Source: a virus
Taxonomy: Duplodnaviria; Caudoviricetes
Length of the DNA stretch: 51,056 bases
IMG/VR virus record: IMGVR_UViG_3300030095_005945
Span: 1 to 51,056 of that record
Strand: one strand, 5' to 3'
A program made the translations under genes and the position numbers. Under the pieces are notes generated by a model. It was given only the letters and a program-made list of their open reading frames with translations. It had not been told where the DNA came from and searched no databases. Positions within the stretch are counted from its first letter, which is position 1. The number at the start of each line of letters is the position of its first letter. Positions 3,283 to 51,056 of this stretch are shown here, in pieces.

Positions 3283-3411
3283 ATGTATTCTAAAAATACT
3301 ACTTACATGAAGATCCCTAGATTTTCTAGTAGTTATAAACCTTGGGATACATTTGATAAAATAATAAGAGTTGTTTTTATTAGAAAGAATAAAAATGCCA
3401 ATAACAAATGA
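3283..3411 (+). CDS. 42-aa basic hypothetical protein
   Basis: Hand-translated MYSKNTTYMKIPRF...NANNK; fills the gap between lysin and holin-like genes. Confidence 0.4.
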   Translation: MYSKNTTYMKIPRFSSSYKPWDTFDKIIRVVFIRKNKNANNK

Positions 3412-3631
3412 AAAAATATATAATGAACTGCAGTATATCAAAGGTAAAATGGACGCTGAAGAAGAACATTCAAAAGAACATAGAGAATGGGAAGTAGGTA
3501 TGATATCTGATATAAAAGAAAATCTTTCTGAAATGAACAGTAGAATTAATTCTAATGAAAATGCTATAAATTGGTTTAAAGGAATAGGAGCAACTCTTAT
3601 ATTTTTAATAGGATGGCTTTTTAAGAAATGA
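3395..3631 (+). CDS. Holin-like / XhlA-like protein (coiled coil plus C-terminal TM helix)
   Basis: Ends WFKGIGATLIFLIGWLFKK; next to the lysin; ATG 3395 preferred over TTG 3371. Confidence 0.55.
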   Translation: MPITNEKIYNELQYIKGKMDAEEEHSKEHREWEVGMISDIKENLSEMNSRINSNENAINWFKGIGATLIFLIGWLFKK

Positions 3632-3961: not shown

Positions 3962-4756
3962 ATGTTTGGATTAAAGAAGAAGTCTGAAATCAGGAGAGCT
4001 ATAGTGACTCCTGATAAGCACTTTCCTTTACATGACAAAAGCGCAATAAATGTAGTATGTAAAGCAATAGAGTTAGTAAAGCCTGATATTTATGTAGATT
4101 TAGGGGATACAGGTGAGTGGGAAAAATTTAGTAGGCATTATTGGAAAGATAGAGAAAAGCCTCCATTGGAAGTTTTAATACCAATGTTAAAAAAAGAAAT
4201 TAAAAGTGTTAACAAAGGGATGGATTTAATAGATAAGTCTCTTGATAAAGCAAAATGTAAAGAGAGATATTTTATACAAGGGAATCATGAAGTCTGGTTA
4301 GATGAATTTGTAATAAAACATCCGTACTTAACTGAATTTAAGACTGAAAATGCTTTAAAGTTATCTGATAGAGGCTATGAATACTGGCCTTATATAAGTA
4401 CTAAAAAACTTAAAATAGGTAAATTAAACTTTACACATGGTGACTTTGTTCCAATACATCATGCTAAAAAGCATTTAAGTGTGTATAAAGAGAATGTAAT
4501 ATATGGACATACTCATGATATACAAAGATTCACTGAAACAGGATTGGGAGGGACTCAATCTGCCTGGAGTCTTGGATGCTTAAAAGATATGAAATCTGAG
4601 GCAAACAGATGGTTAAAAGGTAATTTACATAACTGGAATCATGCATTTGCTATAGTTGATTTTTTTAAAAATGGTGATTTTAAAATAGAAGTTGTTGAAA
4701 TAATAAAAGGTAGAACTACTTTATGGGGAGAAATGATCAATGGCAAATCTAAGTAA
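3962..4756 (+). CDS. Calcineurin-like metallophosphoesterase
   Basis: PDKH, DLGD, GNHE, THG and GHTH motifs in canonical order. Confidence 0.9.
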   Translation: MFGLKKKSEIRRAIVTPDKHFPLHDKSAINVVCKAIELVKPDIYVDLGDTGEWEKFSRHYWKDREKPPLEVLIPMLKKEIKSVNKGMDLIDKSLDKAKCKERYFIQGNHEVWLDEFVIKHPYLTEFKTENALKLSDRGYEYWPYISTKKLKIGKLNFTHGDFVPIHHAKKHLSVYKENVIYGHTHDIQRFTETGLGGTQSAWSLGCLKDMKSEANRWLKGNLHNWNHAFAIVDFFKNGDFKIEVVEIIKGRTTLWGEMINGKSK

Positions 4757-5198
4757 AGAAGAAATAGCTAAAAGAAAAAAAGAAAGAATGGCAGCCAAAA
4801 GGCTAATGATAGATAAGTTAAGGTTTTGGGTAGGCGTATTTAGTGTACCTACAATCTTAATTATGGCTTGTATGCTTATAGGTGCTGCTTATTTTCTTGG
4901 CGAATCACAATTAGCTGTAGTAACAGGTCTTATTTCGACCATAACGATAGGTTTAATCAATGTTCTCAATGGAATGGTAGTACCACCAGCTCCAGAGGAT
5001 CCATTAGCTGTAGTGGCTAAGGATTTGGTTCACCACTTACAGGACCAATCTCAAAAAGATATGGAAGTGTCTATGGATAGAAATACAATTAAAATTGGAG
5101 GGAATGGAGTAAAGATGGAATCTAAAACTCCTGGCGATCCAGTATGGGGAGATGATACTCCTTTAACTAATAAAAAAAGGAAACCAAAAAGTAAATGA
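4740..5198 (+). CDS. Membrane protein with two TM helices
   Basis: Two adjacent hydrophobic segments flanked by basic termini. Confidence 0.65.
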   Translation: MANLSKEEIAKRKKERMAAKRLMIDKLRFWVGVFSVPTILIMACMLIGAAYFLGESQLAVVTGLISTITIGLINVLNGMVVPPAPEDPLAVVAKDLVHHLQDQSQKDMEVSMDRNTIKIGGNGVKMESKTPGDPVWGDDTPLTNKKRKPKSK

Positions 5199-6019
5199 AA
5201 AACATGCATGATTATAGCAAAGTAGTAAAAGCAATGAGAGATTTTTTTCAAGAAGAAAAAGGTTTTATAGAAGTACCTGCTCAAAGCAGACAATCTATAC
5301 TAGCAGCTTGTGAAGATCCAGCGACAATAACAAAATATGAATTTAATAATGTTATTTGGCCTTTACCTCAAACAGGGCAAATGTGGTTAGAAATAGAATT
5401 GTTAAAAAATCCTGATGTAAAAGGTGTATTTTGTGTAACAACAAGTTATAGAAATGAGCCTAATCCTATAGCAGGAAGACATGAAAAGATATTTCCTATG
5501 TTTGAATTTGAATCACATGGCAATATCAATGATATGATTAAATTAGAAGAAGAATTATTAATGCATTTAGGGTTTGGATCTATGCATGAAAAAATAATGT
5601 ATGATAAAGCTTGTAAGAAATACAATACTATGGAATTAGATTATGATGAAGAAGAAGCTTTATGTAAAGATTTTACACCTTGCACTTTTTTAACTCACTT
5701 TCCATTAAGGACACATCCTTTTTGGAATATGAAACATGCTGGTACAGGTATATACAATAAAGTAGATGTTATAATGCATGGTATGGAAACTATAGGTTCT
5801 GCTGAAAGAGCTACTGATATACAAGAGATGAGAGATCAATTTCATAATATATCAGATGGTGAATATGCTAAATTACTTTATGGTCATTTTACTAAAGAAA
5901 GAGTTGAAAAAGAGTTAGAGGAATACTTATCTTTAGATATGTTTGAAAGGTTCGGTGGAGGTATAGGAGTTACTAGAATGGTATCTGCTATGAAGTCTGC
6001 TAATTTACTTGGGGCGTAG
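5195..6019 (+). CDS. Class IIb aminoacyl-tRNA synthetase paralog lacking the anticodon-binding domain (Asp/Asn-RS-like; possibly archaeal-type asparagine synthetase A)
   Basis: Motif 1 FFQEEKGFIEVP, motif 2 YRNE...RHEKIFPMFEFE, ETIGSAER, motif 3 GGGIGVTRM; only 274 aa with no N-terminal OB fold. Confidence 0.85.
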   Translation: MKNMHDYSKVVKAMRDFFQEEKGFIEVPAQSRQSILAACEDPATITKYEFNNVIWPLPQTGQMWLEIELLKNPDVKGVFCVTTSYRNEPNPIAGRHEKIFPMFEFESHGNINDMIKLEEELLMHLGFGSMHEKIMYDKACKKYNTMELDYDEEEALCKDFTPCTFLTHFPLRTHPFWNMKHAGTGIYNKVDVIMHGMETIGSAERATDIQEMRDQFHNISDGEYAKLLYGHFTKERVEKELEEYLSLDMFERFGGGIGVTRMVSAMKSANLLGA

Positions 6020-6082
6020 CACAATGGCAGTTGCAACGGACTGTTAATCCGAGGGTTGTAGGTTCGACTCCTACCGCCCCAG
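6010..6082 (+). tRNA. tRNA-Asn (GTT), CCA not encoded
   Basis: Acceptor stem TGGGGCG/CGCCCCA, discriminator G, D arm GCA/TGC, anticodon arm CGGA-CTGTTAA-TCCG, T arm GTAGG-TTCGACT-CCTAC. Confidence 0.93.
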
Positions 6083-6091
6083 CAGAAAGGA

Positions 6092-6328
6092 GTGAATATG
6101 GTAAGTTTTACTCATTTTATAGTTATAGTAATGGGATTGGGAGTAGGAGAATACTTTAATTGTAAATATCCTAGAGTAGAAGATGGATATAGTAGTGAAG
6201 GATATGTTTGTAATTGGGAGGAAGACGATTTTTATTTAATAAATGGTCAACATATACTAACTCCTATAGATTCTACAGACAATTGTTTTGAGGAAAAAGC
6301 TCGTAAAAAGTATTGGGAGAAAAGGTAA
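6092..6328 (+). CDS. Small protein with N-terminal hydrophobic/signal segment and 3 Cys
   Basis: ORF track; AAAGGAG RBS suggests the start may be ATG 6098. Confidence 0.55.
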   Translation: MNMVSFTHFIVIVMGLGVGEYFNCKYPRVEDGYSSEGYVCNWEEDDFYLINGQHILTPIDSTDNCFEEKARKKYWEKR

Positions 6329-6438
6329 TGGAATTTTTAATAGCATTATTTAAAAGTTTCTTTATATCAATACCTATATTTATAATATATATAGCTATTA
6401 AAATCAAATGGAAACAGTGGAGAGAAAGCGAAAAATGA
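6328..6438 (+). CDS. 36-aa single-TM peptide
   Basis: MEFLIALFKSFFISIPIFIIYIAIKIKWKQWRESEK; TAATG coupling. Confidence 0.5.
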   Translation: MEFLIALFKSFFISIPIFIIYIAIKIKWKQWRESEK

Positions 6439-6439
6439 A

Positions 6440-6595
6440 TTGCATGAAGAATTAATTATTATAATTTTAGCTATATTCTTACATTACGCTATAGAATATG
6501 GTGGTAATTTAGGTAATTATAGTTGCCCAGATTATTGTAAAGTAAAACATGAACATATAAAGGATGAAAAAGATGAAACTAGAAAAACTAGGTAA
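6440..6595 (+). CDS. 51-aa membrane-anchored peptide with CPxYCxxxHxH motif
   Basis: TTG start; IIIILAIFL followed by YSCPDYCKVKHEH. Confidence 0.5.
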   Translation: MHEELIIIILAIFLHYAIEYGGNLGNYSCPDYCKVKHEHIKDEKDETRKTR

Positions 6596-6878
6596 TGTAT
6601 TAAAGAAGCTTGATATAGATCCAGATAGTATAAAAGATGATCTTGAAGCTGCTGTTAAGGAAGAAGTTGATATTGTAAAAAAAGAAGTTGCTTTAAAAGC
6701 TGAAAAGAAAGTTATGCATTACCTTGATAGTGAAAAAGGTAAAAAACAAATGATTAAAAAAATTAATGATGCTATAGATATACCTTGGATATCAGAATCT
6801 ATGGAAGAAAAAATATTTACAGTAATCTTTAATGTAATAAGTGGTGCAATTAAAAAAGTAATAAAAAAGGAGAAATAA
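6564..6878 (+). CDS. Hypothetical protein
   Basis: ORF track; INDAIDIPWISESMEEKIF segment. Confidence 0.65.
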   Translation: MKKMKLEKLGNVLKKLDIDPDSIKDDLEAAVKEEVDIVKKEVALKAEKKVMHYLDSEKGKKQMIKKINDAIDIPWISESMEEKIFTVIFNVISGAIKKVIKKEK

Positions 6879-6879
6879 T

Positions 6880-6957
6880 ATGCCTTACGGTAAAGGGACA
6901 TATGGTAAAAAAAGAGGAAGACCACCTAAGAAGAAATCTGGTAAAAAAGGAAAATAA
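6880..6957 (+). CDS. 25-aa basic AT-hook-like peptide
   Basis: MPYGKGTYGKKRGRPPKKKSGKKGK; AAGGAG RBS; TAATG-coupled to the next gene. Confidence 0.7.
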   Translation: MPYGKGTYGKKRGRPPKKKSGKKGK

Positions 6958-9900
6958 TGCCTAAAAAGCTACATGAAATAAAGGGATTTCACACTGGTAC
7001 TATTAGTAATCCATCTGAAACTGACGTTCCAGCTGATTCAAATGTTAGTAGTTTAGACATAGACAATCATTTATCAGCTGGATCTTTAAAAGGTAGATAT
7101 GGGAATAAGAGTTATGATACTGGTGGATATACTACAAATAATTATACAAATGGAGTATTTACTATTGTTATTACTGCAGCTAATACTAGTCATGCTTTGA
7201 ATAATTTGAATTTCAATATAAGTTCTCCACATAATGATTATTTGTTCTATCTTAGCTCGACAGGAGCTTCTCCTGCAGCACAACCACCAGCTGCTAGATC
7301 TGGCACTGAAGATGAAAATGTTATACAAATTCAAGTTGATATAACAAATAATGATACTATAGATCAAGTAGGTGAAAAAATTAGAGCCAAAATAAATACT
7401 ATAGGTGTATTTAGTGCTTCTTATAATGTTAGTAATGATACTATTACAGTTACTCAAGGTAGAAAAGGAATTTTTAATGCTCCAACTGCAAATAATTCAG
7501 GATTTACTTTTGCAGTAACAACTCCTGGTGTTTTATATAATATAGATACTAAAAGTTCTATTTTTATAAAAGATGGAGAAGAACATGATTTTTTTTATGT
7601 TGATAATTTTACAAATAGATTAAATAGAATATCTGATTTTTACAATAAAAATAGCAATCAAGAATTAAAAAAAGGCAATGACATATCAGATCAAGAATTA
7701 AGTCTTTCTAAAACTAATAAAATCATAACAGCAGGAAGAGGGAAATCATTAAATCCGAAAGCTTTTGGATATTTGAATAACGATAGTTTGGAAGGGCAAA
7801 AGGGAAATTATTTTGAATCTGATGCTGAATTAAGCCCTCCTGATGGAACTAATCCTTTTGGTAGATTTACTAGAATTATAAAAGTTTCTAATGATGATAG
7901 TGGATTATATGGATATATTAAAGGACAACCATATATATGGAGAATTAAATTTGATCATACAAGCGCAGGAACATTAGGCTCAGCTTTTAGAAGTTCTAAA
8001 TTAAATTTTAAAGTAGATCATATGTGTAATTGTGTTTCTGCTAGTGCATCTGATAGTTATGTATGGATTTATGATGGTCCTGGGAATGACCCTAATTCTC
8101 TTGAGTATAATTCATTTTCAAATAAAAATTATAATGATGATGAGACAGAAGATAATCCAGGAAGTTTTTATAAATTAAAAGTTAATGCTGGTACTCCTAT
8201 TGATTGGGAATCTTCTCCTCCAGTTTTAAGTTCATTAAAACAAGTAAATATAGCTTTTGAAACAAATAAAGCTATGGATTGGACTCATGATAATACTGAT
8301 AGTAATGAATATTATTCTGGAAAAGCAAGATTAGGTGATATGATGGAAACTGGAAATCATACAAAAGGAATTTTATGGTTTTTAATAATTCCAGTTTATT
8401 CTGATGAAAATGAATTATCTCAATGGTTTAGATTTACAAGAATAAATTGGATAGGAAATGATGCAAGTGGAAATCATAATGGATATGATGAGCCAAATTC
8501 AATAGCTAAAGGCATAGCTAATAGTATTCCAAGATGGTTATATGCTGCTAATGGAATGGAAGCAGTAGATGAGTCGGGTGGAGTAGAGACTATAACTTTT
8601 AATGATAAAACACCACAACATATGGGTTTATTAGAAACAAGAGGTAATACAAATTTACAAAACAATCCTCTTAACCTTCCTATATATCAAAATTATTCAG
8701 GATTTTCATTTAATGATGGAAATAAAGGAATGACGGAAGGTATTTGGGCGTTTTTCTATAATTTTACATACAAAGAATCCGATCAAACTTTTACAATGAC
8801 ATCGTATGATGCTCATGATGCTACTCACCAAACTGTTTATACTATAGCTAAAAATATTGGTATGATTTGCGCTCATAATTTTTCTCAATATATAGGAGAT
8901 AATTGTGGAACTGCAAATAGAAGATGGACTGATACTGGAGCTGGAGCATCTAATATTGGAGATGATGTTCTTCCAAGAATTGCTCCTTTAGAATTTTCAT
9001 TAGTAAACTTATCTGCTGATTATGGAATAGATGAAGATGGTGGCAGTGGAAATGCAGTAGTAGGTTGTATGACTAAATATAATACTCAACCTAGTGGAAT
9101 ATGGCTAGTTAATAGAATAGATTCTCAATGTAATAATAGTGGCTCAAATAGTTATTGGAATGGGATGATATGCGATACAGTAGATAGTAATTCAGGAACC
9201 TATGTAGAAGGCTCTAGCAGTGATGAGTATAGAGTTGACGTATCTGGTAAAACTGTAATGTATGTTTGTAGTTATTTAGGAAATGAAGGCGCTATGCATA
9301 TGAATGATACAGATGGCTGGACAAGTGCTGCTGCTGGAGGTGAGCCAGCTGGATTAGGTAATGATGGTGATTTTGCAAGTGGTGCTCATAAAACATCTAC
9401 AATGACATCTGATGCACCAGATACTGCATTAAGACAAGCTAGGCTTTTTAATAATGATGATTTTAATACTATATCTCCATCAGATTTTCATGGTGTATCT
9501 ATGATACGAAAAGTTGGTACAGATTCGCAAGCCAATACTGATAATGCTTCTAGTAAGGAATCTACCTTTTTTGTTTTATATAAAAAACATCAAATTTATG
9601 GACCTGAAAATTTTGAATATTTTACAAAACTATTAGCTCTTGATGCAAGAGTTTGTAGTAATAACAAAGGGACTGCTGCATCTGGAGATGTTGATGCAAA
9701 TATATTTGAAGGAATTGCTACTTTTAATCAATCATCATATAGTATATCATTTGATGGGGATGGAGATTTAGATGGCTTAGGTACGATATCTGCTCATAAT
9801 CCAAGGATGCAAGATCCTACTTTTGTTGTAGAAGAATTTAATGCTGGTGGTACTGGTAATGCAATTGGTTTACATTCTAAAACTGTAGATACTAGATTAG

Positions 9901-16767: not shown

Positions 16768-19700
16768 ATGGAAGATTATCAAAACCCAACTGAAGATTAC
16801 TCTTTTAAGCCTGTATACACAGCAGATTTAACTAATCGTTTAGTTACTAATTATAGAAAAAATCCTAATAAATTCAATGAAAAACTTGTTTCTCAATTAG
16901 AGGAGCATGCTAATCATTATAATATTGGATTTAATCGTGATACTACGTCTGATGATTTTAATGCAATAGATACTATAAAACAAGTTGGAACTGGATTTAT
17001 GTCTGGTTTTACTACACTTAATTATGGTGAACCCCCTAAAAATCCTTATGAAAATATAGCTCATAGTTTAGGTCATTTAGCAGGATTTGTTGGATGGGTG
17101 CCTGGAGCTCATGCTAAAAGTAGTTTTGCAGCATTAAGAGCTTTATCTGTTTTAAAAGGTAAATCAATTCCACTAGTTGCAGCTAATGCTGTTCAAAAAC
17201 CTGTTTCTAATTTTGCTGCAGAAATGGTTCAAAAAGGTTTTGGAAAAAGAAGCGAAGCTGTATCTGGAGTAGCCAAGTTATTATACAACGATACAGCAAG
17301 AGATGCTGTTGAAGGAGCATTTCATTTGGGTACTGCATCTGCAGTATCATCCTGGACACATGGTGTTGATGCTATGATAGATTCTGCTATACATGGAGGT
17401 GTTGCAGGTGGTGCATTTAGAGGTATAGGAAACTTATTAAAATCTCCTTTACCAAAAGACAATGCAGTAGCAGAAAATGTACTTGGATCTGTTGCTGGTG
17501 CCTTATTTACAGGTCTTCCTGCCACAATGAGGGGAGCTACAGCTCCTGAGCAAGTATACGAATATTTATTAGGTGCATATTTTGGATTTAATGAATCACC
17601 TTCATCAAGAAGAGTAGCACAAAAATATAGATACGAAGAGCTTCAAAAACAACCTACTGCTCAAAAAATGCAAGAAAAGCTTGAAAAAGACTTGCTTAAA
17701 AAAGATTGGTCTCCAGAAACTCAAAAAGTTGTTAGAGAGTTTTCTGAACAAACTATACAAAGCGAACAAGTTATGGAGATAATGAGAAAGCTTGGAAGGG
17801 ACAATCCAGCTCTAAATCAGGCCTTAGAAGCTCGTTTTGTTGCTCAGGAAGGGAAACCTCCTACTCAAGAGCAAATAGAGCGTATAAAGGATAATATATT
17901 CAAAACAGAAACACCTGTTGAGCCTACTGAATTAGCAGATACTCCAAGAATTGAAACTGTAAAAAGATATAACAAAAGTATGCTAAGAGCTAATACTGAT
18001 AAAGTTTATTTATTTGGAGATAATTTAGAAGGTAGAGGAAAGGGTGGTCAAGCTGTAATTAGAGATGAGCCTAATTCATTTGGCATACCTACTAAAAAAT
18101 CGCCTAGAAGAGATTCTGATGCATATTTTATGGATGCAGAATTTGAAGCTAATAAAGTAGCAATAGATAATGCTATAAATGCAATTCCTAAAAATAAAAT
18201 AATAGTTTTTCCAGAAGATGGACTAGGAACTGGGTTAGCAAAGCTTCCTGAAAAAGCTCCTAGAACTTGGGAATATTTACAACAAAGGCTTGAAGGTTTA
18301 AAGAAAGAAGTTCAGTCTGAGAATATGATAAAAGAGATTGAAGTAAAAAATACAGAACAATCTCAAAAAGTTGAACAAGAAAAATTAGAAAGAGAAGATA
18401 CAGGAGTAGTTGTAGATGCTCCATTAAATATAAAAGATTGGGCATCTGATAATATAGTTAAAAGCTGGTTAAAAGAAGATGGAACTACTGATGTATTTAA
18501 AAAGAAAGCTAATATTGAAGACTTAAATTTAAAGCTTAGAGAAAAGATTAAAAATAGAGATATGGACATAGATGAGTTAACTAACTGGATGAAAGTTAGG
18601 TATAACTATGACATTACAAGTCCAGAAGCTACAGAAAGAAACTTTTTTAGAACATTTTTAAAGAGAAAGATTGCTGAACAAAATGTTAGAATAGTATCTC
18701 CTGAGCTTGAAATAGAGTATAAATTCACTCCAAAGAAAAGAAAAGGTAAAGTAGTAAAAGATGAAAGTGGAAATGTAGAGTTTTATAGAAACTTTCAAGA
18801 TATAAAAGATATTAATTTTACTGAGCTTACTCCTGATAACCCTCAAAATATAGCAGGCAATAGAAAGTCTATTAAAATGCCTGTATTTAATATTGAGAAT
18901 ATATATAATTCTATAAAAGGTGGTAATCTGAATCTATCAGATCCAAACCAAAGACCTCTTAGAGTAGTTGATGAAGTTATTATTAAATCTAAATCAGGAT
19001 TTCCAAAAGAAACTAATATGTTAGGCTTTAAAGATCAAGTAGAAAGACAAGTATACAATGACAATTTAAAGTTAAAAGGTCATGTTGCTGCTGAAAGTAT
19101 GGCAAAAAGAGTGTCTGAAGAAGCTTATAATAAATTTATAGGCAATATGTATGAAGGTATGCGAAAGAAGGGTTATTACTACTTTAGTGGAAGAGGTGAC
19201 GCTGATAAAATGATGTTTATGAAATATCATCCTGAAATAGAAGCTAAGAAACCTTATGAAATAAAGCAAATATTAAATGATATTATAAGAGAAAATAATT
19301 ATGATAAAAATCTAATCAATAAAGATAAATCTGATTTTGTTAAAAAGTTTAAAGATTTAAAAATAGCAGATGATGTTTATAACAGAGGATTTGTATCTAA
19401 TTTATATTACAATATGAGTATGAATGGGATTACTCCTGTAAAAGGGAATTATAATTTTGTAAATACCAAAGGATTCATTACTAATCCAATAGCGTTTAAT
19501 AAAAGAGCTCAAATATGGTTTACATCTGGTTATGAAATGGAACCTGCTTTTTTACAAAGAGAAATAAAAGACATGAAAGATGGTCAATTTAGAATGACTT
19601 TAACAAAATCTGTTGATGATTTGCCAGGCGAATTGAGAAAATTACCTTGGGAAAAGATGAAAAATACGGATACTGTAGAGCATGTTGATGGTGGAACTCC

Positions 19701-22700
19701 TACAAGAGATGATGTTATGACTGCTATACACAAAGAAACAGGAATGTACGATCCTTCAAATCCTAGTGGTCATAGTAAAAATATGACAATATCAATAGGA
19801 AACGAAGGTAAAGGTGCTATGCTATTAAAAGATATGAACTTTGATGCTGGAGTAAAACAATCTAAGGCAATGGAAAAGCTTGGAGTACATTTTATGCCTA
19901 ATACTACAGCTGCTAAACAGTATGGTAATAGGAAAGCTATGTTTCATGAGTTTGTAAAAGGTGAGTATAAGTTTTTTAATTGGGTAAAGAAAAAAGGCAA
20001 ATGGGTAAAAGAATATGGTGAACCTGAAATATTTGATGTTGATGTTAGAGATTTAAAAACAGTTCTATCAGAAACAACAGATACTAAGAATATAAAGAAT
20101 AAAAAGCTTGTAAAACAGATGCAGACTAATTTTTCATCTTTAAATAAAAACGTAACACCAGAATTAACAGAACAGTTTTATAATGATTACAATTTAAAGC
20201 ATTTTAATGGTAAACAAAGATATAATGATCTGTTAAAAGAATATGAAGCTACTAAAAATCCTGATTTAATAGAAAGTATAGTAAAAAATATAGAAAATAT
20301 ATCTACAACTGATGTAGCAAGAGTTCTTACTGAGCCTGGATTAGAAGAATTGCAACTAAGACTTTATGAAAAGCTATTTAGAATTAATAGGCAAAATGAA
20401 TTGCTTTCTTTAGAAGAGGGTGAAATTGGTGAAAAGGAAATATCAGATACTATAAGAGAACTTAATCAATACAAATCTACTGCAGATAGGAATCTTAAAT
20501 TAGCAGATAATAATATAGCCGTGTATTTACATAAAGCTCAAAGCCCTTTAAAAAGAAATATAATTAAGAATTACATAGTAGGTCAAATAACTAGACCTTT
20601 AGTTCCAAATTCATTAGGTGGAAGAATAAGGCCTTATGATGTAGAGCTTCAAATAAATCCAGCGACTAAAAGATTAAATAAAGAAAAAGATCTGATATTT
20701 TTAGATGATGGAGCTAAGGGTAAGAAGATAGATTACGAAGATTTAACAGCATTTTTAGAGTCAAGAACTAATCCTATTGTTAGAAAATCCGTTATTAAAC
20801 AGATTACAAAAAATGATACTTTAGAAAAATTATGGAATTATAGAAATGAAGCAGTTGGAACAAAAACTCAAGAATATATAGATAATTTTCTTGAAAGTAT
20901 TACTACAAGAGTTCCTATTGATTCTACAAGCGGATCAGTTGTATTAAAATTTGGTGGATTTACTGGTAGAAAAGGTTTTGGTGGAATAGTTCATGGTGAA
21001 GTTATGTCTAAAATAGGTGGTGCAGATACTGATGGTGATAAATTCTTTAGTTATTTTGGTATTAAACCTGAATATAAACAAGTATTTAGAGATAATGCAA
21101 ATGAATTTGTTAGATATTATAAAAAATCAGAATATTTAAAAAACCCAAATAAATTGACTTCTAAATTAACTAAAGAAGAATACGAAGCTTTACCTAAAAA
21201 AGAAAAAGAAGATTGGTATTCTGCTATATCTAATAATAAAAATGATTGGAGACATTTATATACTATAACAGAAGGAGAAGCTAAAGAAGTAAGACAAAAT
21301 CCTTCTATGTTTTATAGTGTTAATCAGAGAAAAGTTATTTCAGATGTTGCAGCAGATGGTCGTAATAGATTGGGAGTTGCTGTAGTAGATAAACAGAATT
21401 TATTAGCTGCTTATACTGATTTATTTTCAGCTGGCGTAAAAAGTAAGACTATTGAGCCAAGTGGATATGCTGAATACGATGTTAAATTAAGAACTGATGT
21501 AAAACAATTAAGCGAGGCTTTAGAAAAATTAAGAACATCTATAGCTATACCTTCTGATCCATTAGATGAAATTGGAATTAAAGGTAGAAGTGAATACTTT
21601 TCTAATATGTTTGATTCAATATTTGAAGTTACAGCTTATAGAAGAAGAAACTTAAAAACAAAGAAATGGGAAAATAAACCTGTCAGGCAAATAGAACCTT
21701 GGATGAAGCGATATATAATAGCTCCATATTCTAATATAAATTCTGCTTATTATGGTAAGAATTACTCTAAAAACAGGCAATGGACTTATGAAGAAATGAA
21801 AGACAAAGGTTCTTTTATAAATATTATAGCACAAAATGGCGATATAGTTTCTTCTATAGCAAGACAGGGTAGAGATTTGCAGAATATTAATTTCTATGAT
21901 GGGCTTGACAGAAGATTGAATAAAAAATCGGTAGCAAAAGTATATGATGAGTATTCTAAGAATATAAAAGATTATTATGATGTTGCAAAAGCTATAGGAA
22001 AAGCTGGATGGCAGGTTCCTTTAAATAAGCCGATTAGAGACTATTTAGGCTATAAAATAGAAAATATGGATAAGAAGCTACAAGCAGAGCAATTTCTATC
22101 GAATGACATGCATAATATGGCTTCATTTAATCAGTTTATAAAATACTGGAAAGAGATACCTACAGCTAAATTAACTGAAATGGCAAAAAAGGCACAAGAA
22201 ATACAAAATAAATCTTTCTTAAGTAGAATGGAAGATAAAGAAGCTATTAGATATGAAGTTAAGGTAGGTAAAGAAGTAAAAGAATTATCTAGCGAAGAGA
22301 TGAATATATTAAAAAGATCTGGTGAACAATTTGAAGTATTAAGAGATATTCCTTTAGAGAAGAAATCTACTATAGTTACACAGGCAAAAACAGATAAAGC
22401 TATATACGATTATAAAAGAACTTTAAATCCAAAAGAAAGACAAGCATTTGACGCTTTAATAATAAGTGGCTTTAAGCCTGGAGATGGTAAAAATGTAGAT
22501 AAATACTACAAGTTGTTAGACAAAAAAGATAGATTAACGCCTTTAGAGGAGATTGAGCTTGCAAGATTGAGAGATATAGTATATGCTACCAATTCTAATA
22601 GCTTAGGTTTTGCTAGTGAAGCAATATCAGATAATGTTATACAAGATTTTTGGAAGGGTTTTGATGGTGTGTATCATAAGATGTCAAGAAAACCATCTAA

Positions 22701-25700
22701 AGAACTAAGTGAAGATATTGATAATGTTGTTGAATCTGTTAAAAAAGTAGAAACTAAGGTTGGTGAAAAAGAAGTAAAAGCAAATCTTGAAGAAGGTTAC
22801 GAATCTAAGTTAGAAAAATTAAGAGTATTAGATAAGATTCCAGGCTTTAGAAGATTATCAGAGCAAAAAGCAGGTAAAGTAAAGCTTACAAACGAAAATC
22901 AAAAGCTATATGATGAGCTTTTAGACAATTTAAACTCTTATGGTAATAGCATAGGAATTAAGCTTGAAGGATTGATAGCAGATCTATTTAATAAATCACC
23001 AGATGCTATGACCATTGAGGATGTAAGAGCATTTAATCATTTACTTGGCTCAAGAAGAAAAGGTGACAATCTTGGCTGGATACATAATCAATTTATAAAA
23101 TGGACTAAAGGAGATCCAAAGTTAAGTGGATATTTTTACCATATATTCCCAAGAACTGTAGATAAAGCTTGGTTAAAAAAGGATTTAGATCTGGTTGAAA
23201 GAATAGGATATAAATGGGAGCCTGGGAAAAAATTACCTGTTGAATCCATAACATATAAACCATTGCACGCTATAGGGCAGATGCAATATAATAATAATGC
23301 ATTAAATCAAATGGCAGCTCATGAAGTTAATAAAATGGAAAGCAAGATAAGGGATGGATTACAGTTTTTAAATTCCATTAAAGAAGGAACTGAATTGCAT
23401 GAATTAGCTATATACAAAAGAGAATTACCAACTGGGCTTGCTTTATTTGAAAGTGGTGAAAAGATAAAAGCTACAGCTTATGGCGTAAGGAATGGCAGAT
23501 TACAGCCAAAGATTCAAAAAAGAATAGATGAGTTATCTGATAAAAAATATAGAATTTTAGATGGAAAGACTAAAAAGGATCTTACTGGTAGTCAAATAAT
23601 GGATAAGATTAATAAGTTTTGGAATAAAACATTTGATGATATGTATAATAATTGGATTTTTGGGGATAATCAATCTATAAAAAGATTTGTTTCTAGAGAT
23701 AAAAAAGGAGTAGAGTCTGGTAATATTGATACTTTTATAAAAGAAATTACAGACGCTATTAAAGAAGGTAGACCAGTACATGAAGCTGTTAAAATAGGTG
23801 TAGATGGTATAAATAAAATGGCTACTCATACTCAATTAAGCTTAACTAATAATCCTAAATTAAGAAACAAGCTTTACAATAGACTTGGAGAGTTTACAAA
23901 GTATAGATCAGGATTTTGGGGACATAGAAACTATGAAAAATCTGAAATAGAAAAAGCTTTAAAAAGCAGAATGGAAGAGCTAAAAAAGAAGAATATACCT
24001 GAAGAAGATAGACAGCAAATAGTAAATGAAGCAGCAAATTTAGCATTAAGAATGAGAAATATACAAGATGAATTTGATTTAAGTGCATATAAATCTTGGA
24101 ATATGTTTGATGAAGTTACGGATGCTATAAAAAATAAAATGGTTGATAAAATACAATTTGAAAATGCTGAGATTAGATCGGGACATACTATGGGAAGAAA
24201 GCTTCATATAGCGGGATATGATAGAAGTCCATCAGCAGGGGAAGGATACGCTAAAAGCGTTATAGAGAATTTCTATAAAAATACATCTCAAATATTAAGT
24301 AGAAAAATTATAGATAGATTTGAAAAAGCTAAAAGTCAGAAATATTTAAAAAATGGAAAGATTGTAGATAAGGCTGGGTATGATAATATACAAGCTTGGG
24401 GTAATTTCTTTAAATTATATGCTAATAGAGCGTTGGGCTATCCCGAAGTAATACCAGATTATCTATTAAACAATCCAAATATGGGGATAAAAGGAACGCC
24501 TTATTATTGGTTTGCTGATTCTACTGTTAAAAATAGAATGAACATCATAGCTAAAAAAATGGGTATAAAAAACAAGGATATACCAAAAGAAATAGATGAG
24601 ATGCTATCTTATAATAAAATAAGAAACTGGAGTAATATGGAAGCTAAATATCAATTAGCTACATTATTAGCTCATCCAAAAACTGCGATAGCAAATATAT
24701 TTGGTGGATCTACTATGACAATTCAGTCTGTTGGATTAAGAAATTGGTCAAAGGTAAGAAATTATGAATGGTTAAAAAATAATGTAGATTCTAGTTTTAC
24801 ATCTAGGCAATCTATATATGATCATGTTGTAAAATTAGGTGTTCAAGAAGATTTTTTAAGGAAAGAGATTGGCTTGTCTGGTGCAGCTAAAAGTAAAAAA
24901 GTAAGTGATGGATTAGAGCTTTTGGCTAAAAAGATTAAAAGAGATCCAAGTGTTGAAGATAAAGAGTTAAAAGATATATGGAAAAAATCAGGGTTATCTG
25001 ATAGTTTATTTGAAAAAGCAGCTTATTTTATGAGAAAATCTGAAAGAATGTTGAGAACAGATTCATATATGGCTCATTTATTACAAGGATTAGATATATT
25101 TAAAGGAGCTATAAACGATATTAATCATCCGTTTCTTGTATGGTGGGCTAAAGAAGGTGTAAAAAATACTCAGTTTTTATATGATGCTTCAAATAGACCA
25201 GCTTTTGCATCGAGTGCATTAGGAAAGGTTGTTTCAAGATTCCAAATATGGGCTTGGAACTCAGTTGCTTTTAGAAGTATGGTATATAGAGAGGCCAAAG
25301 AAAGAGGATTTCAAAGAGGAACAAAAGAATTTGAAAGATTTAAAAGAACAATGCAAATGGATCTTATGATGTTTTCTTTAGCAAATGTATTTGCATATAG
25401 TTTATTTGAAAATACTTTACCTGCACCATTAAATTGGTTCCAGGATTTAGCAGATTGGATGTTTGGAGATGAAAGTGAACGAGATAGAGCATTTTTTGGA
25501 GCTTATCCTAAAGCAATAGCACCATTACAAATGGTTACTCCTCCAGCTTTAAGATTATTACCACCTACTATGAAAGCATTATTAGATGATGATTGGAGTA
25601 GAATGTCTGATTATTATTTATGGACGGTATTGCCATTTGGAAGGTTAGCAAGGGATGTTAAAATATCGGCTGAAAATCCAATGCAAATTGTGGAAAGAAG

Positions 25701-25761
25701 TACAGGATTACCTTATATTAAATTACATAGGTATTTAAAAGAGCAAAGAGAACTTGAATAG
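16768..25761 (+). CDS. Giant virion protein, putative single-chain two-barrel RNA polymerase with macrodomain-like insert
   Basis: TRVP...IVHG...GGADTDGDKFF (DxDGD at 21025-21039); HVDGG and downstream lysines near aa 972-1030; LFGDN...GGQA...GIPTK...GLGTGLA at aa ~412-500; Gly/Ala-rich N-terminus. Confidence 0.7.
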   Translation: MEDYQNPTEDYSFKPVYTADLTNRLVTNYRKNPNKFNEKLVSQLEEHANHYNIGFNRDTTSDDFNAIDTIKQVGTGFMSGFTTLNYGEPPKNPYENIAHSLGHLAGFVGWVPGAHAKSSFAALRALSVLKGKSIPLVAANAVQKPVSNFAAEMVQKGFGKRSEAVSGVAKLLYNDTARDAVEGAFHLGTASAVSSWTHGVDAMIDSAIHGGVAGGAFRGIGNLLKSPLPKDNAVAENVLGSVAGALFTGLPATMRGATAPEQVYEYLLGAYFGFNESPSSRRVAQKYRYEELQKQPTAQKMQEKLEKDLLKKDWSPETQKVVREFSEQTIQSEQVMEIMRKLGRDNPALNQALEARFVAQEGKPPTQEQIERIKDNIFKTETPVEPTELADTPRIETVKRYNKSMLRANTDKVYLFGDNLEGRGKGGQAVIRDEPNSFGIPTKKSPRRDSDAYFMDAEFEANKVAIDNAINAIPKNKIIVFPEDGLGTGLAKLPEKAPRTWEYLQQRLEGLKKEVQSENMIKEIEVKNTEQSQKVEQEKLEREDTGVVVDAPLNIKDWASDNIVKSWLKEDGTTDVFKKKANIEDLNLKLREKIKNRDMDIDELTNWMKVRYNYDITSPEATERNFFRTFLKRKIAEQNVRIVSPELEIEYKFTPKKRKGKVVKDESGNVEFYRNFQDIKDINFTELTPDNPQNIAGNRKSIKMPVFNIENIYNSIKGGNLNLSDPNQRPLRVVDEVIIKSKSGFPKETNMLGFKDQVERQVYNDNLKLKGHVAAESMAKRVSEEAYNKFIGNMYEGMRKKGYYYFSGRGDADKMMFMKYHPEIEAKKPYEIKQILNDIIRENNYDKNLINKDKSDFVKKFKDLKIADDVYNRGFVSNLYYNMSMNGITPVKGNYNFVNTKGFITNPIAFNKRAQIWFTSGYEMEPAFLQREIKDMKDGQFRMTLTKSVDDLPGELRKLPWEKMKNTDTVEHVDGGTPTRDDVMTAIHKETGMYDPSNPSGHSKNMTISIGNEGKGAMLLKDMNFDAGVKQSKAMEKLGVHFMPNTTAAKQYGNRKAMFHEFVKGEYKFFNWVKKKGKWVKEYGEPEIFDVDVRDLKTVLSETTDTKNIKNKKLVKQMQTNFSSLNKNVTPELTEQFYNDYNLKHFNGKQRYNDLLKEYEATKNPDLIESIVKNIENISTTDVARVLTEPGLEELQLRLYEKLFRINRQNELLSLEEGEIGEKEISDTIRELNQYKSTADRNLKLADNNIAVYLHKAQSPLKRNIIKNYIVGQITRPLVPNSLGGRIRPYDVELQINPATKRLNKEKDLIFLDDGAKGKKIDYEDLTAFLESRTNPIVRKSVIKQITKNDTLEKLWNYRNEAVGTKTQEYIDNFLESITTRVPIDSTSGSVVLKFGGFTGRKGFGGIVHGEVMSKIGGADTDGDKFFSYFGIKPEYKQVFRDNANEFVRYYKKSEYLKNPNKLTSKLTKEEYEALPKKEKEDWYSAISNNKNDWRHLYTITEGEAKEVRQNPSMFYSVNQRKVISDVAADGRNRLGVAVVDKQNLLAAYTDLFSAGVKSKTIEPSGYAEYDVKLRTDVKQLSEALEKLRTSIAIPSDPLDEIGIKGRSEYFSNMFDSIFEVTAYRRRNLKTKKWENKPVRQIEPWMKRYIIAPYSNINSAYYGKNYSKNRQWTYEEMKDKGSFINIIAQNGDIVSSIARQGRDLQNINFYDGLDRRLNKKSVAKVYDEYSKNIKDYYDVAKAIGKAGWQVPLNKPIRDYLGYKIENMDKKLQAEQFLSNDMHNMASFNQFIKYWKEIPTAKLTEMAKKAQEIQNKSFLSRMEDKEAIRYEVKVGKEVKELSSEEMNILKRSGEQFEVLRDIPLEKKSTIVTQAKTDKAIYDYKRTLNPKERQAFDALIISGFKPGDGKNVDKYYKLLDKKDRLTPLEEIELARLRDIVYATNSNSLGFASEAISDNVIQDFWKGFDGVYHKMSRKPSKELSEDIDNVVESVKKVETKVGEKEVKANLEEGYESKLEKLRVLDKIPGFRRLSEQKAGKVKLTNENQKLYDELLDNLNSYGNSIGIKLEGLIADLFNKSPDAMTIEDVRAFNHLLGSRRKGDNLGWIHNQFIKWTKGDPKLSGYFYHIFPRTVDKAWLKKDLDLVERIGYKWEPGKKLPVESITYKPLHAIGQMQYNNNALNQMAAHEVNKMESKIRDGLQFLNSIKEGTELHELAIYKRELPTGLALFESGEKIKATAYGVRNGRLQPKIQKRIDELSDKKYRILDGKTKKDLTGSQIMDKINKFWNKTFDDMYNNWIFGDNQSIKRFVSRDKKGVESGNIDTFIKEITDAIKEGRPVHEAVKIGVDGINKMATHTQLSLTNNPKLRNKLYNRLGEFTKYRSGFWGHRNYEKSEIEKALKSRMEELKKKNIPEEDRQQIVNEAANLALRMRNIQDEFDLSAYKSWNMFDEVTDAIKNKMVDKIQFENAEIRSGHTMGRKLHIAGYDRSPSAGEGYAKSVIENFYKNTSQILSRKIIDRFEKAKSQKYLKNGKIVDKAGYDNIQAWGNFFKLYANRALGYPEVIPDYLLNNPNMGIKGTPYYWFADSTVKNRMNIIAKKMGIKNKDIPKEIDEMLSYNKIRNWSNMEAKYQLATLLAHPKTAIANIFGGSTMTIQSVGLRNWSKVRNYEWLKNNVDSSFTSRQSIYDHVVKLGVQEDFLRKEIGLSGAAKSKKVSDGLELLAKKIKRDPSVEDKELKDIWKKSGLSDSLFEKAAYFMRKSERMLRTDSYMAHLLQGLDIFKGAINDINHPFLVWWAKEGVKNTQFLYDASNRPAFASSALGKVVSRFQIWAWNSVAFRSMVYREAKERGFQRGTKEFERFKRTMQMDLMMFSLANVFAYSLFENTLPAPLNWFQDLADWMFGDESERDRAFFGAYPKAIAPLQMVTPPALRLLPPTMKALLDDDWSRMSDYYLWTVLPFGRLARDVKISAENPMQIVERSTGLPYIKLHRYLKEQRELE

Positions 25762-26664: not shown

Positions 26665-27525
26665 TTAAAATATATACCTTATTTCTTGCCAAGGTATGTG
26701 TTTATTATGATTTTCTAAGAATTTATTTATATACATACGTTTTGCTTGGTATCTATATCTAATATTTACACCACCGTATTGTGATATTTTTCTTTCTTGC
26801 AATCTAGGTTCCCATAAAAAGCCTTCTCCTTTAACATTGTGTATTATGTTATATTTATGCATTTTTTCGTTATGTGTTAAGAATATGCATTCTGCTTTTA
26901 CATAAGGCTTTATGCTTGGGTCTACTATATTGTCTACTAATTTAAATAAATCTCTATAATCCTCTTTATGATTTTCATACATTATTATTGGAGAATAATT
27001 TATATGAACATCATATCCAGCTTCATAGAAATCATTTATTGCTTTTATTCTGTCTACAATTTTACTTGTACCAGGTTCTAATTTGTCTGATAATGATTGT
27101 GGCATAAGACTAAATCTTATTCTAATCTTTCTGTCAGGATCATAATTTAACAAATCTTTATTTACATATTTTGTAGCAGCTGTACCCATGGCTTTTTCAT
27201 GATATTTAAAATAATTAAATATTAAATTCCAATCATGGTAATTAGCGTGCAATACAAAATCTTCGTTACAACTAAAATCATATGTATAATATTCTTTATG
27301 TGTTTGATTCTGCTGTTTAGGCCAAGACAATTCTTCACAATGCTTTTCTATAGCTATTAATATATCTTCAGGATTATTAGCTATTGTTAAGCCAGAAGGA
27401 ACATGTCTTCTCATATAACAGTAAGAACATTTATACATACATCCAAAGCCAAAGCTTGGTGTTATATAATCACTACTTCTACCAGATTCTCTGATAATCA
27501 TAGCTTTTCTATTTACATATCTCAT
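26665..27525 (-). CDS. Spore photoproduct lyase (SplB)-family radical SAM protein
   Basis: GCMYKCSYCYM (CxxxCxxC), DFSCNED, ATKY, RIRFSL, GYDVHINYSPII, NIRYR. Confidence 0.8.
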   Translation of the reverse strand: MRYVNRKAMIIRESGRSSDYITPSFGFGCMYKCSYCYMRRHVPSGLTIANNPEDILIAIEKHCEELSWPKQQNQTHKEYYTYDFSCNEDFVLHANYHDWNLIFNYFKYHEKAMGTAATKYVNKDLLNYDPDRKIRIRFSLMPQSLSDKLEPGTSKIVDRIKAINDFYEAGYDVHINYSPIIMYENHKEDYRDLFKLVDNIVDPSIKPYVKAECIFLTHNEKMHKYNIIHNVKGEGFLWEPRLQERKISQYGGVNIRYRYQAKRMYINKFLENHNKHIPWQEIRYIF

Positions 27526-49044: not shown

Positions 49045-51056
49045 ATGGCATGGACAGGTGATAATGTAGCTATAGACACTAATTACTATCAGGATGTAGT
49101 TATTACTGGTAGCCTTACAGTTGATAGTAAGATAAAATTAAATGACAATATTTTAACAACTGCTACAAACATACCTTTAATATTAAAAACAGATTCTCTT
49201 ATCATAAAGCCTTATGGCGATTCAACCCCTGATGATGGAATACTTGATATACAAAAACATGATGGTTCAAGTGTATTTAAAGTTAATCCGAATACAGGAG
49301 TTGTTGATATTAATGGTTCTTTTAATGCGGGATCTATCGGTATTTCATCTCTTGATTTAGACAACATTGACATAGATGGTAATATAATTAAGATTGACAG
49401 CACTGGTAGATCAGATGGTAGTATTGATAATAGAGTTCAAATAGAGCAGTTATTAGTTAAAATAGGATCTAATCAAGCTGATTTGTTTTCAGTTCAAGAT
49501 TCTTCTGGTGGAAATGTAATAAACGTAGATACAACTGCAAGTCCTAATTTAGTTTTAATAGATGCATCAATTAGATTAGGAGGATCTGGAGCTTATATAG
49601 CGACTAATGAAACTACTGATATAGATTTTCAAGCAAATGACAAAACAACTGTAATGAGGTTTGAAACTGACAATAAGCGTCTAGGCATAAATACTACAAC
49701 TCCTGCAGCAGCATTACATGCAGTAGGTGCAAATGCAGGTTATTTCAGTAATTCTGCAGCTCAAGATTGTTTAGTTACTATTCAGGGTGGTTCTAGTAAT
49801 GATGCAGTTTTGACTTTTAAAGCTGATAAAGGTTTAGCTAGTGCAAATATAACAAAAGTATATCAAGAAGATGGTGTGGGATTTCACATAAAAACTAATA
49901 ATTCCCTTGTAGATTCTATGACTATATTATCTGCTGGAAATGTTGGTATAGGTAATACAGCTCCTGAATCTAAGCTAGAAGTAAATGGAGACATACGAAT
50001 ACCTAATGGTAATAGATTGTATTTTTATGAAGGTTATGATTATAATTACTTAGACTTTTCTAGTGGAACTTTAAATGTAGGATATACAGCTGATGCTCTT
50101 AGATTTGATTTAAATGAAAGTACTACCAAAACTATGGAGATGGTAGCTAATTCTAATTTTGAAATAAAAGGCTACAATGATAAAGACATATTTATAACTC
50201 CACAAGGAACAGGTAAAGTAGGGATAGGTACTACATCTCCTGGTGCTGCATTACACTTAGCTAGCTCAGGTCTTATGACATTGCTTCAATCTAGCTCAAC
50301 ACTTAATAGTATGCAATTCCAAGATAGCAATACTGGATTGTCTTCAAATGCAAATAATGGTACTACTATAGGTACTAATACAGGTGTTTTTCACATAAAC
50401 AACAGAGAAGACAAGAATATACAATTTGCTACAAATGATACTACTAGAATGATAATAAAAAATAATGGTATGGTAGGTATAGGACTCTCTCCCTCTGTCA
50501 ATTTACATGTATTAAGAAATGGATATAAAGAAGTTGCAAGATTTGAAAGTACATCAGTAACAGGTTCAAGAATAACTATTGAAAGTGATTCTAATTTATC
50601 TTCTACAGTTGCAGAAAGAGATGGGCATCTTGTATTGCAAGATACTAATTCAAGAAAAGTAGCTATAGGATTTGACCAACCTGATTCATTATTGCATATG
50701 TCAGGCGCTGACCCTTATATGACATTTACTAATACAGCTTTAGAAGACAGTGCAGAAGGTAGAGAATCTAAATTAATATTTGAAGGAACTACAGTTGCAG
50801 GTGGCTCTGCTTATGATTCAGCACAACATCATTTAGCTGAAATTAATGTATCTCACTATAAGAATGAAAATGATAAAAAAGGTCAGTTTACATTTAAAGT
50901 AAACGATGGTAATGATGATAATGGTAGTCTTCAAACAGCTGTAAATATAGATTCTTATAAAAATGTAGTTATAGGTGGTAGAACATCTTTTAATGGCACT
51001 ACAGGCTCTTGTGCAGCTTTATATGCTGAGTATACAGGCTCTGCTATGGGAACTAC
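49045..51056 (+). CDS. Tail fibre, N-terminal part (open to window end; ~1403 aa when joined to 1-2332)
   Basis: MAWTGDNVAID...; repeats RLGINTTTP, GNVGIGNTAP, GKVGIGTTSP, GMVGIGLSP; absent from the ORF track because no stop is reached. Confidence 0.85.
   Translation, partial: MAWTGDNVAIDTNYYQDVVITGSLTVDSKIKLNDNILTTATNIPLILKTDSLIIKPYGDSTPDDGILDIQKHDGSSVFKVNPNTGVVDINGSFNAGSIGISSLDLDNIDIDGNIIKIDSTGRSDGSIDNRVQIEQLLVKIGSNQADLFSVQDSSGGNVINVDTTASPNLVLIDASIRLGGSGAYIATNETTDIDFQANDKTTVMRFETDNKRLGINTTTPAAALHAVGANAGYFSNSAAQDCLVTIQGGSSNDAVLTFKADKGLASANITKVYQEDGVGFHIKTNNSLVDSMTILSAGNVGIGNTAPESKLEVNGDIRIPNGNRLYFYEGYDYNYLDFSSGTLNVGYTADALRFDLNESTTKTMEMVANSNFEIKGYNDKDIFITPQGTGKVGIGTTSPGAALHLASSGLMTLLQSSSTLNSMQFQDSNTGLSSNANNGTTIGTNTGVFHINNREDKNIQFATNDTTRMIIKNNGMVGIGLSPSVNLHVLRNGYKEVARFESTSVTGSRITIESDSNLSSTVAERDGHLVLQDTNSRKVAIGFDQPDSLLHMSGADPYMTFTNTALEDSAEGRESKLIFEGTTVAGGSAYDSAQHHLAEINVSHYKNENDKKGQFTFKVNDGNDDNGSLQTAVNIDSYKNVVIGGRTSFNGTTGSCAALYAEYTGSAMGT
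50925..51056. repeat. Terminal direct overlap, copy 2
   Basis: Matches 1-132 with two mismatches. Confidence 0.95.

Follow-up and report, generated by a model that had tools for sequence, protein, structure and literature searches.

The marine tailed-phage record IMGVR_UViG_3300030095_005945 (Caudoviricetes; 51,056 bases, the whole of which was analysed and is called the window below) carries on its plus strand an open reading frame (ORF) of 274 residues at 5195–6019, whose TAG stop codon (6017–6019) lies inside a tRNA-Asn(GUU) gene at 6010–6082 on the same strand. Its sequence and predicted fold place the encoded enzyme in an uncharacterised family of very strongly conserved stand-alone catalytic cores derived from asparaginyl-tRNA synthetase (AsnRS). 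The association of the family with tRNA(GUU) is genuine. Close relatives either form fusions with PyrD or PyrF or belong to pyrD/pyrE/pyrF operons, in genomes without CarB, PyrB and PyrC, and on these grounds we tentatively propose, with a probability of roughly 40%, that the protein is a previously undescribed ATP-dependent enzyme feeding the late pyrimidine pathway by way of dihydroorotate, and that its tRNA-Asn was captured.

Fold, family and substrate pocket of the enzyme

Pfam recognised a single domain in the protein, the class IIb catalytic domain PF00152 (E 6e-19), which spans residues 3–266 of the 274; the N-terminal OB-fold anticodon-binding domain is absent, and the structural match to AsnRS begins at AsnRS residue ~130–244. 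An initial annotation, made from the sequence alone, had described the protein as an aminoacyl-tRNA synthetase paralogue without an anticodon-binding domain, and both the domain content and the fold match to the AsnRS core bear this out. The protein belongs over its full length to PHROG 29758, a family of unknown function (E 2e-97; residues 5–267 on profile positions 8–266 of 267). More than 8000 homologues were scored, and 167 clusters at 50% identity were obtained at E<1e-30. Within the literature on the family or on a long-arm tRNA-Asn, supplementary files being outside its scope, the only label we found was ‘tRNA ligase’, given to T4-GC 194 of the cyanophages P-SSM2 and P-SSM7 (Sullivan et al. 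2010, PMC3037559); the accessible part of Iyer et al. (2021) makes no mention of the family.

An AlphaFold2 (AF2) model of the enzyme (pLDDT 96.1) was compared with known structures. AsnRS of the archaeal/eukaryotic type (2xti, 8h53, 1x54, 9sh8) shares the class IIb fold over enzyme residues 2–270, with VIA Z-scores of 27–28 (28.0 to 2xti), a root-mean-square deviation of 2.1–2.4 Å over 246–249 aligned residues and an identity of 20–23%. The Z-scores were 26.5–27.0 for archaeal aspartyl-tRNA synthetase (AspRS), 24.0–24.6 for AS-AR, the archaeal-type asparagine synthetase (24.6 to 3rex), near 24 for LysRS and 23.7–23.9 for GenX/EpmA. When the family profile was run against the PDB, the E-values were 2.5e-14 for AsnRS, 1.1e-12 for AspRS, 1.5e-5 for AS-AR and ~7e-5 for GenX. 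On the AsnRS model TIGR00457/NF003037, the window protein scored 26 bits against a cut-off of 342.6, whereas the genuine AsnRS of two control loci (L097 and L098) reached 608–654 bits.

EpmA (PoxA/GenX), a LysRS paralogue, modifies EF-P by transferring an amino acid to an acceptor that is not a tRNA; like our enzyme it consists of a class IIb core and has no anticodon domain. Scores on the EpmA models TIGR00462 and NF006828 were far under the cut-offs (24.5 vs 286.9 bits and 37.6 vs 264 bits), and the pocket of the family is of the AsnRS and not the LysRS type. AS-AR (‘AsnRS2’; 3p8t/3reu) is likewise a stand-alone core derived from AsnRS/AspRS and of similar length, described as serving metabolism and not tRNA charging (PMC9437257). 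The identity to AS-AR is, however, only 17–18%, and none of the four AS-AR models NF005052–NF005055 matched the window protein at E<=1 or the cellular homologues L085 and L088 at 1e-10, although bacterial AsnRS reaches 118–129 bits on these models. The bacterial AsnA models TIGR00669/PF03590 gave no match to the window protein either (E<=1 in NCBIfam). Together with a match to 3p8t that is nine orders of magnitude weaker than that to AsnRS, these results give no indication of an archaeal-type asparagine synthetase.

The protein has motifs 2 and 3 of class II as well as the residues of the Asn pocket, and R86, E88, R95, H96, E104, R205, G254–G258 and R261 are invariant, as is L65. The family motif PQTGQMWLE aligns with TQSSQLYLE of AsnRS, L65-E66 falling on its ‘LE’; the AspRS counterpart is QSPQLYKQ. 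The side chain of the substrate is bound by Lys and Arg in AspRS and by Glu, Arg and a binding-site Leu in AsnRS (PMC7387524). As read from the alignment, the family has AsnRS-type residues (Leu, Glu, Arg) at the positions separating the two enzymes and keeps the ATP-binding motifs 2 and 3 with their arginines, which points to a predicted adenylate-forming ligase binding an asparagine-like carboxamide. The stretch from motif 2 to motif 3 is ~30 residues shorter than in AsnRS, and the family has invariant residues of its own (C39, D41, P42, W177, N178, K189, S202, A203, R236, E240, R252).

Pyrimidine genes of the bacterial relatives

The bacterial relatives are 55–61% identical to the window protein and have the same invariant residues. 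At four of the 11 cellular loci examined, genes of nucleotide synthesis or a near match lie beside the family gene: in L086 it is preceded by pyrF and followed by pyrD and pyrE; further cases are the family gene, pyrE and pyrF in L089; the family gene and pyrD in L091; and in L085 a phosphoribosyltransferase marginally below the cut-off (26.2 vs 26.3 bits). The other seven loci have unrelated neighbours. Two of the ten longer family members are fusions, P0126 of PyrD with the core and P0150 of the core with OMP decarboxylase; of the remaining long members, six showed only the core, and in two Pfam recognised nothing. Such fusions and operons set the family apart from AsnRS, and the company of tRNA-Asn and pyrD/E/F sets it apart from AS-AR. 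The idea of a cassette for asparagine supply, put forward in the initial annotation, does not explain these genomic links.

The ten carrier genomes tested appear to lack early steps of the pathway. Over the cut-offs, pyrB and carB were each found in 0/10 cellular carriers and 14/14 controls, and pyrC, searched with two models, in 0/10 carriers and in 11 and 1 of the 14 controls. PyrD reached at least 190 bits in four of the ten carrier genomes. The cyanophages P-SSM2 and P-SSM7 carry pyrE.

It was also found that the window clade, the tRNA-linked clades and the pyr-operon members have the same residue at 53 of the 68 tabulated family-conserved positions, among them C39-E40-D41-P42, Q59, Q62, L65, E66, R86, E88, R95, H96, E104, E106, E198 to A203, R205 and R261. 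The fusions P0126 and P0150 show a few substitutions, all outside the named motif and pocket residues. Since these residues are identical across the clades, one chemistry would be expected throughout. The tree, from a quick LG+G4 search with 113 cluster representatives and 4 outgroups, unites the window clade with the bacterial pyr-operon members (97*).

Association of the gene family with tRNA(GUU)

Homologous loci were collected from a phage collection, from IMG/VR with three queries, from cellular genomes and from the window itself. They comprise 197 distinct ORF sequences that end in a stop codon, and 194 of these are followed by at least 100 bases of downstream DNA. A locus was counted as linked when ARAGORN called a tRNA with the anticodon GTT on the same strand no more than 1.5 kb downstream. 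This was the case at 76 of the 194 loci: the window (1/1), phage records (3/5), window-like IMG/VR loci (3/64), P-SSM7-like loci (60/66), L031-like loci (9/46) and cellular loci (0/12). The remaining six P-SSM7-like loci have the same kind of tRNA by eye, which ARAGORN miscalled or missed. At 112 of the 194 loci, including all 12 cellular ones, there is no tRNA-Asn nearby. Among the tRNAs that ARAGORN found behind phage copies, 76/82 carry GUU, and four more read GTTT in the loop by eye. Other tRNAs behind the gene are rare: a tRNA-Gly (L217), an unclassified call of 97 bases (L220), an extra tRNA-Arg behind a miscalled tRNA (L177), and a tRNA-Gln and a tRNA-Thr at two bacterial loci.

The tRNA-linked state occurs in at least four places on the tree, namely in a cyanophage clade (28/29 representatives), in the clade L209–L220 (6/7), in L029 and L031, and in the window cluster, which sits among 16 tRNA-less representatives. 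In phages the gene has gained a tRNA(GUU) gene at its 3' end several times, and the family is tied to this tRNA far above chance, as the initial annotation had supposed. The family gene is also often found among tRNA and tmRNA genes.

Some further observations were made at these loci. Phage tmRNA genes lie within ~1 kb of the family gene on three unrelated IMG/VR contigs (L029 2123–2456, L217 1819–2157, L078 3978–4303). In the P-SSM2 record (AY939844.2, L002), ARAGORN placed the tRNA-Asn directly behind the ‘tRNA ligase’ gene, at 3286–3373 of L002, about 2 kb away from the annotated tRNA-Asn PSSM2_199; this mismatch is probably a coordinate slip in the record. A PhotoRC-II RNA motif (RF01717, 54.3 bits) lies at 3523–3611 of the cyanophage contig L150, ~200 bases behind the enzyme–tRNA pair. 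Contigs labelled as giant-virus metagenome-assembled genomes (GVMAG; L223–L253 and others) have the family gene without a tRNA.

Canonical and long-arm partner tRNAs

The tRNA-Asn of the window is of canonical size (73 bases) with a 5-nt variable loop. The anticodon GTT at 6043–6045 stands in the canonical loop CTGTTAA with A37. It scored 58.3 bits on RF00005 (gathering score 29), and its cloverleaf, GUU anticodon and G73 identify it as an Asn isoacceptor; it is the single tRNA that ARAGORN called in the whole 51-kb record. Read directly, its ends show U1:A72 (T6010/A6081) and G73 at 6082, and the gene encodes no CCA, the bases 6083–6085 being CAG. These three features were all given correctly in the initial annotation.

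A canonical 73-base tRNA-Asn with the loop CTGTTAA was found only in the window and in its relative L007; all other partner tRNAs(GUU) have 83–96 bases and a long variable arm. In 25 diverse copies of the long-arm type, compensatory changes were seen in 21 of 24 predicted pairs, so that this tRNA is evidently kept functional. G73 and G34-U35-U36-U37 are invariant (25/25), the pair 1:72 is U:A in 18 copies and A:U in 7, and position 33 is C in some. U37, and C33, are unusual in a decoding tRNA. GUU, G73 and an A/U first pair are identity elements for non-discriminating AspRS (ND-AspRS) and GatCAB. At its gathering threshold Rfam detected only 2 of 8 long-arm tRNAs submitted to it; the case for the type comes from ARAGORN and the covariation count. 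In P-SSM7, ARAGORN and Rfam both called a 73-base tRNA-Leu(UAA) with a short variable region (L001 2344–2416) beside the long-armed tRNA(GUU), so that the two body types look swapped.

The stop codon within tRNA-Asn

The initial annotation had placed the stop codon of the enzyme gene inside its cognate tRNA-Asn(GTT), and this was confirmed by the sequence, the ORF list, ARAGORN and Rfam. The final 10 nt of the ORF (6010–6019, plus strand) are tRNA positions 1–10, and the TAG doubles as U8-A9-G10. The consensus line of the RF00005 model has UAG at exactly these positions, and thus an ORF that enters a tRNA gene in this frame always stops there. It is chemically reasonable to infer that one copy of the transcript would give either protein or tRNA. 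The overlap is a neat example of the conserved UAG of a tRNA serving as a stop codon and probably not a regulatory invention.

Near relatives argue in the same direction. Three IMG/VR loci that are 87–89% identical (L006, L008, L009) have no tRNA; their enzyme ORF ends at its own stop codon, and the next small gene begins 1–4 nt after it. L007 (88% identical) shares the arrangement of the window, with the tRNA between the same two genes, and in both the C-terminal residues of the enzyme differ from those of the tRNA-less relatives. The T stem of the L007 tRNA differs from that of the window by paired changes, and therefore the tRNA is under structural selection and kept functional. A homologous ORF in L217 has the same 10-nt overlap into a tRNA-Gly(GCC). 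Elsewhere the spacing varies: the tRNA begins 6–12 nt past the enzyme stop in the cyanophage clade, overlaps the ORF by 2 bases in L213 and L214, and lies 88–1046 bases downstream at other loci of the family. As a conserved device the overlap does not hold up, since with tRNA-Asn it was seen only in the window and L007. We read it as a probable scar left by the insertion of a tRNA gene into a very tight gene junction.

Hosts, carrier genomes and transcripts

No AsnRS over the cut-off was found in four complete picocyanobacterial genomes, those of Prochlorococcus MIT 1012, MIT 9302 and SS51 and Synechococcus RCC307 (G006–G009); AsnB-type genes were present in 3/4 and AS-AR in 0/4. MIT 9302 has neither an AsnRS nor an AsnB-type gene over the cut-off, and its asparagine may be made only on tRNA. 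Without AsnRS in the hosts of the cyanophage clade, the largest of the tRNA-linked ones, free asparagine could not be loaded directly onto tRNA there. This argues against an enzyme that simply supplies asparagine, and a private AsnRS stays a candidate. Among the five cellular carriers tested first, AsnRS was absent over the cut-off in three, and AsnA was found in none. The chlamydial carriers (G003 and G004) have a full AsnRS and neither AsnA nor AsnB over the cut-off, and the AsnRS/AsnB/GatB make-up across the carrier genomes is mixed.

In the window, no terminator-like sites were seen on the plus strand between 3500 and 7200, and promoter-like sites were not above shuffled sequences (13 vs 20.1 +/- 4.9). 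Two RNA-library runs from one marine sample contain an identical 160-base contig over 5985–6141 with no differences from the window, and an RNA run of another study has a contig of a relative over 5940–6155. By spanning the end of the ORF, the tRNA and the next gene, these contigs give a weak hint of co-transcription; they cover a small share of the window, leave most of the enzyme ORF uncovered, do not reveal RNA ends and could stem from DNA carry-over.

The phage genome

The record is a whole virus record, estimated to be 96% complete, with a G+C content of ~32% and with terminase, portal, head and tail genes. From 3962 on, the ORF list shows a tightly packed run of genes on one strand with overlapping stops and starts. 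Upstream of the enzyme gene lies an ORF of 152 residues without a family match (4740–5198, plus strand), whose TGA (5196–5198) shares bases with the ATG of the enzyme gene (5195–5197) in an ATGA junction. Downstream of the tRNA, a small ORF on the plus strand runs from an ATG at 6098 to 6328 behind a GGAG ribosome-binding site (6089–6092); it is the homologue of the gene directly 3' of the enzyme gene in the three tRNA-less relatives.

Asparagine makes up 9.4–11.1% of five large ORFs and 7.1% of all residues across 27 ORFs, with 818 AAT and 115 AAC codons counted. Two of the five (122–2332 and 49045–51054) match tail-type PHROGs, so the Asn-rich tail proteins noticed at the outset are real. 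A megablast search of 4000–9000 against phages gave no match, and the best match of the portal protein among phages, to P22-like podophages, is only ~22% identical. An ORF on the minus strand (26665–27525) matches the spore photoproduct lyase family PF20903 (E 5.5e-22), a radical-SAM DNA repair enzyme. After the Asn-rich structural genes comes an ORF of 2997 residues on the plus strand (16768–25761), ~18% of the genome.

Discussion

We propose that the core is an adenylate-forming ligase that would act on an asparagine-like substrate and, by an ATP-dependent short cut, yield dihydroorotate or another compound usable by PyrD; ring closure on asparagine and CO2, or on a compound like carbamoyl-aspartate, would be examples of such a reaction. 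The phage would use it to push the pyrimidine synthesis of its host for AT-rich phage DNA. In the window, a canonical tRNA-Asn probably landed so near that the last codons and the original stop of the enzyme gene were replaced. The enzyme gene, the tRNA and the downstream genes would probably form one transcript, and excision of the tRNA would strip the stop codon from that mRNA copy, as a tolerated by-product and not as a conserved switch.

Several points weigh against a pyrimidine role. We know of no enzyme of the class IIb synthetase fold that makes dihydroorotate, so that the chemistry is conjectural, and hosts such as Prochlorococcus are expected to have a normal early pyrimidine pathway. 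A search of the window record for pyrE and PyrD gave no match, and no pyrimidine gene was found in it. No strong match to PyrD was obtained in six of the ten cellular carriers (Chlamydiae, Dependentiae, Saccharibacteria), and thus feeding PyrD cannot be the whole story. All carriers but G001, a complete chromosome (2.6 Mb), are metagenome-assembled genomes (MAGs) and may be incomplete. A pyrimidine role also leaves unexplained why a GUU tRNA and almost never another stands behind 76/194 loci, and the tree on which the grouping with pyr-operon bacteria depends came from the quick search described above.

The boldest variant that agrees with all the observations would bring the tRNA into the reaction: the AsnRS-derived core would take asparagine from Asn-tRNA(Asn) and, using CO2 and ATP, convert it by ring closure to dihydroorotate. 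Where the host has no AsnRS, the asparagine would be made on tRNA by ND-AspRS and GatCAB, and the phage tRNAs, mostly long-armed and with U37, would be dedicated carriers. This would explain why an AsnRS-like fold that binds acceptor ends has no anticodon domain, why GUU, G73 and an A/U first pair are invariant, and also the PyrD/PyrE/PyrF fusions and operons; as a whole we consider it rather improbable. Unlikely, yet to be taken more seriously, is a private AsnRS. The core would load asparagine directly onto tRNA-Asn, with G73 and the A/U first pair as recognition signals, and would thereby offer the phage one-step charging where the host relies entirely on ND-AspRS plus GatCAB. AsnRS is the nearest kin by sequence and fold and the pocket is of its type, at least four clades show the tight pairing with tRNA(GUU), G73 is present in 25/25 long-arm copies and pair 1:72 is always U:A or A:U, tRNA and tmRNA genes frequently surround the gene, and AsnRS over the cut-off was found in 0/4 picocyanobacterial genomes and is missing in 3/5 of the carriers first tested. 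Such an enzyme would nevertheless make no sense of the pyrimidine fusions and operons, in which the named conserved residues are identical; most loci, including every cellular one, have no tRNA-Asn nearby, the chlamydial carriers already own a full AsnRS, U37 and the occasional C33 are odd for decoding, and the score on TIGR00457 is far below its cut-off.

The acceptor might also be something else, as for EpmA or GluQRS: a protein, a non-pyrimidine small molecule or a tRNA base, for example in the GUU anticodon loop. The EpmA-like architecture (Z 23.9) with its weak NCBIfam EpmA matches and the invariance of G34-U35-U36-U37 would fit, and in a Saccharibacteria locus (L092 1886–2863) the family gene directly follows Dus, a tRNA-modifying dihydrouridine synthase. 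We regard it as quite doubtful, given EpmA scores so far under the cut-offs, no conserved protein partner having been seen beside the gene in phages, and pyrimidine links that it leaves unexplained. We think it slightly less probable again that the tRNA link has no function, tRNA genes being recombination hot spots and the gene travelling as a cassette that ends at a tRNA. The presence or absence of the tRNA among near-identical relatives and the tRNA-Gly at the same place in L217 would agree with this, and Sullivan et al. (2010, PMC3037559) remark that tRNA genes of cyanophages are found where synteny between the genomes is lost. A chance link is hard to reconcile with GUU in 76/82 tRNAs behind phage copies plus the four read by eye, with two unrelated tRNA architectures, canonical and long-arm, in at least four clades, and with compensatory changes in 21/24 pairs that mark the long-arm tRNA as kept functional. 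We give the least credence to an asparagine synthetase like AS-AR (aspartate, ammonia and ATP to asparagine) that, together with the tRNA, would boost asparagine for virion proteins. Its attraction lies in a stand-alone AsnRS/AspRS-like core of AS-AR size (Z 24.6 to 3rex), in virion proteins with ~10% Asn and in chlamydial carriers that have AsnRS but neither AsnA nor AsnB over the cut-off; yet the four AS-AR models and AsnA stay unmatched at E<=1 where bacterial AsnRS scores 118–129 bits on the former, the family profile matches AS-AR more weakly than AsnRS (1.5e-5 vs 2.5e-14), hosts without AsnRS cannot load free asparagine, and the pyrimidine fusions and operons are left over.

In the tRNA clusters of T4-type phages, tRNA genes overlap or abut protein genes in polycistronic transcripts. 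The window tRNA is similar in lying in a same-strand run without a promoter or terminator signal of its own and in encoding no CCA, and it presumably depends on the host RNase P and CCA-adding enzyme. It differs in that U8-A9-G10 of the tRNA terminates the upstream gene, and processing and translation of one RNA copy would therefore be mutually exclusive. We conclude that enzyme and tRNA are somehow connected, the overlap as such being incidental.

If dihydroorotate is the product, as we favour, one enzyme would replace the three classical first steps of pyrimidine synthesis, and the users of this route would include many marine phages, contigs whose IMG/VR names mark them as giant-virus MAGs, and host-dependent bacteria. 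If the core charges tRNA instead, a minimal AsnRS with an unusual tRNA of its own would exist in nature, which would bear on the evolution of the genetic code and on the engineering of orthogonal pairs.

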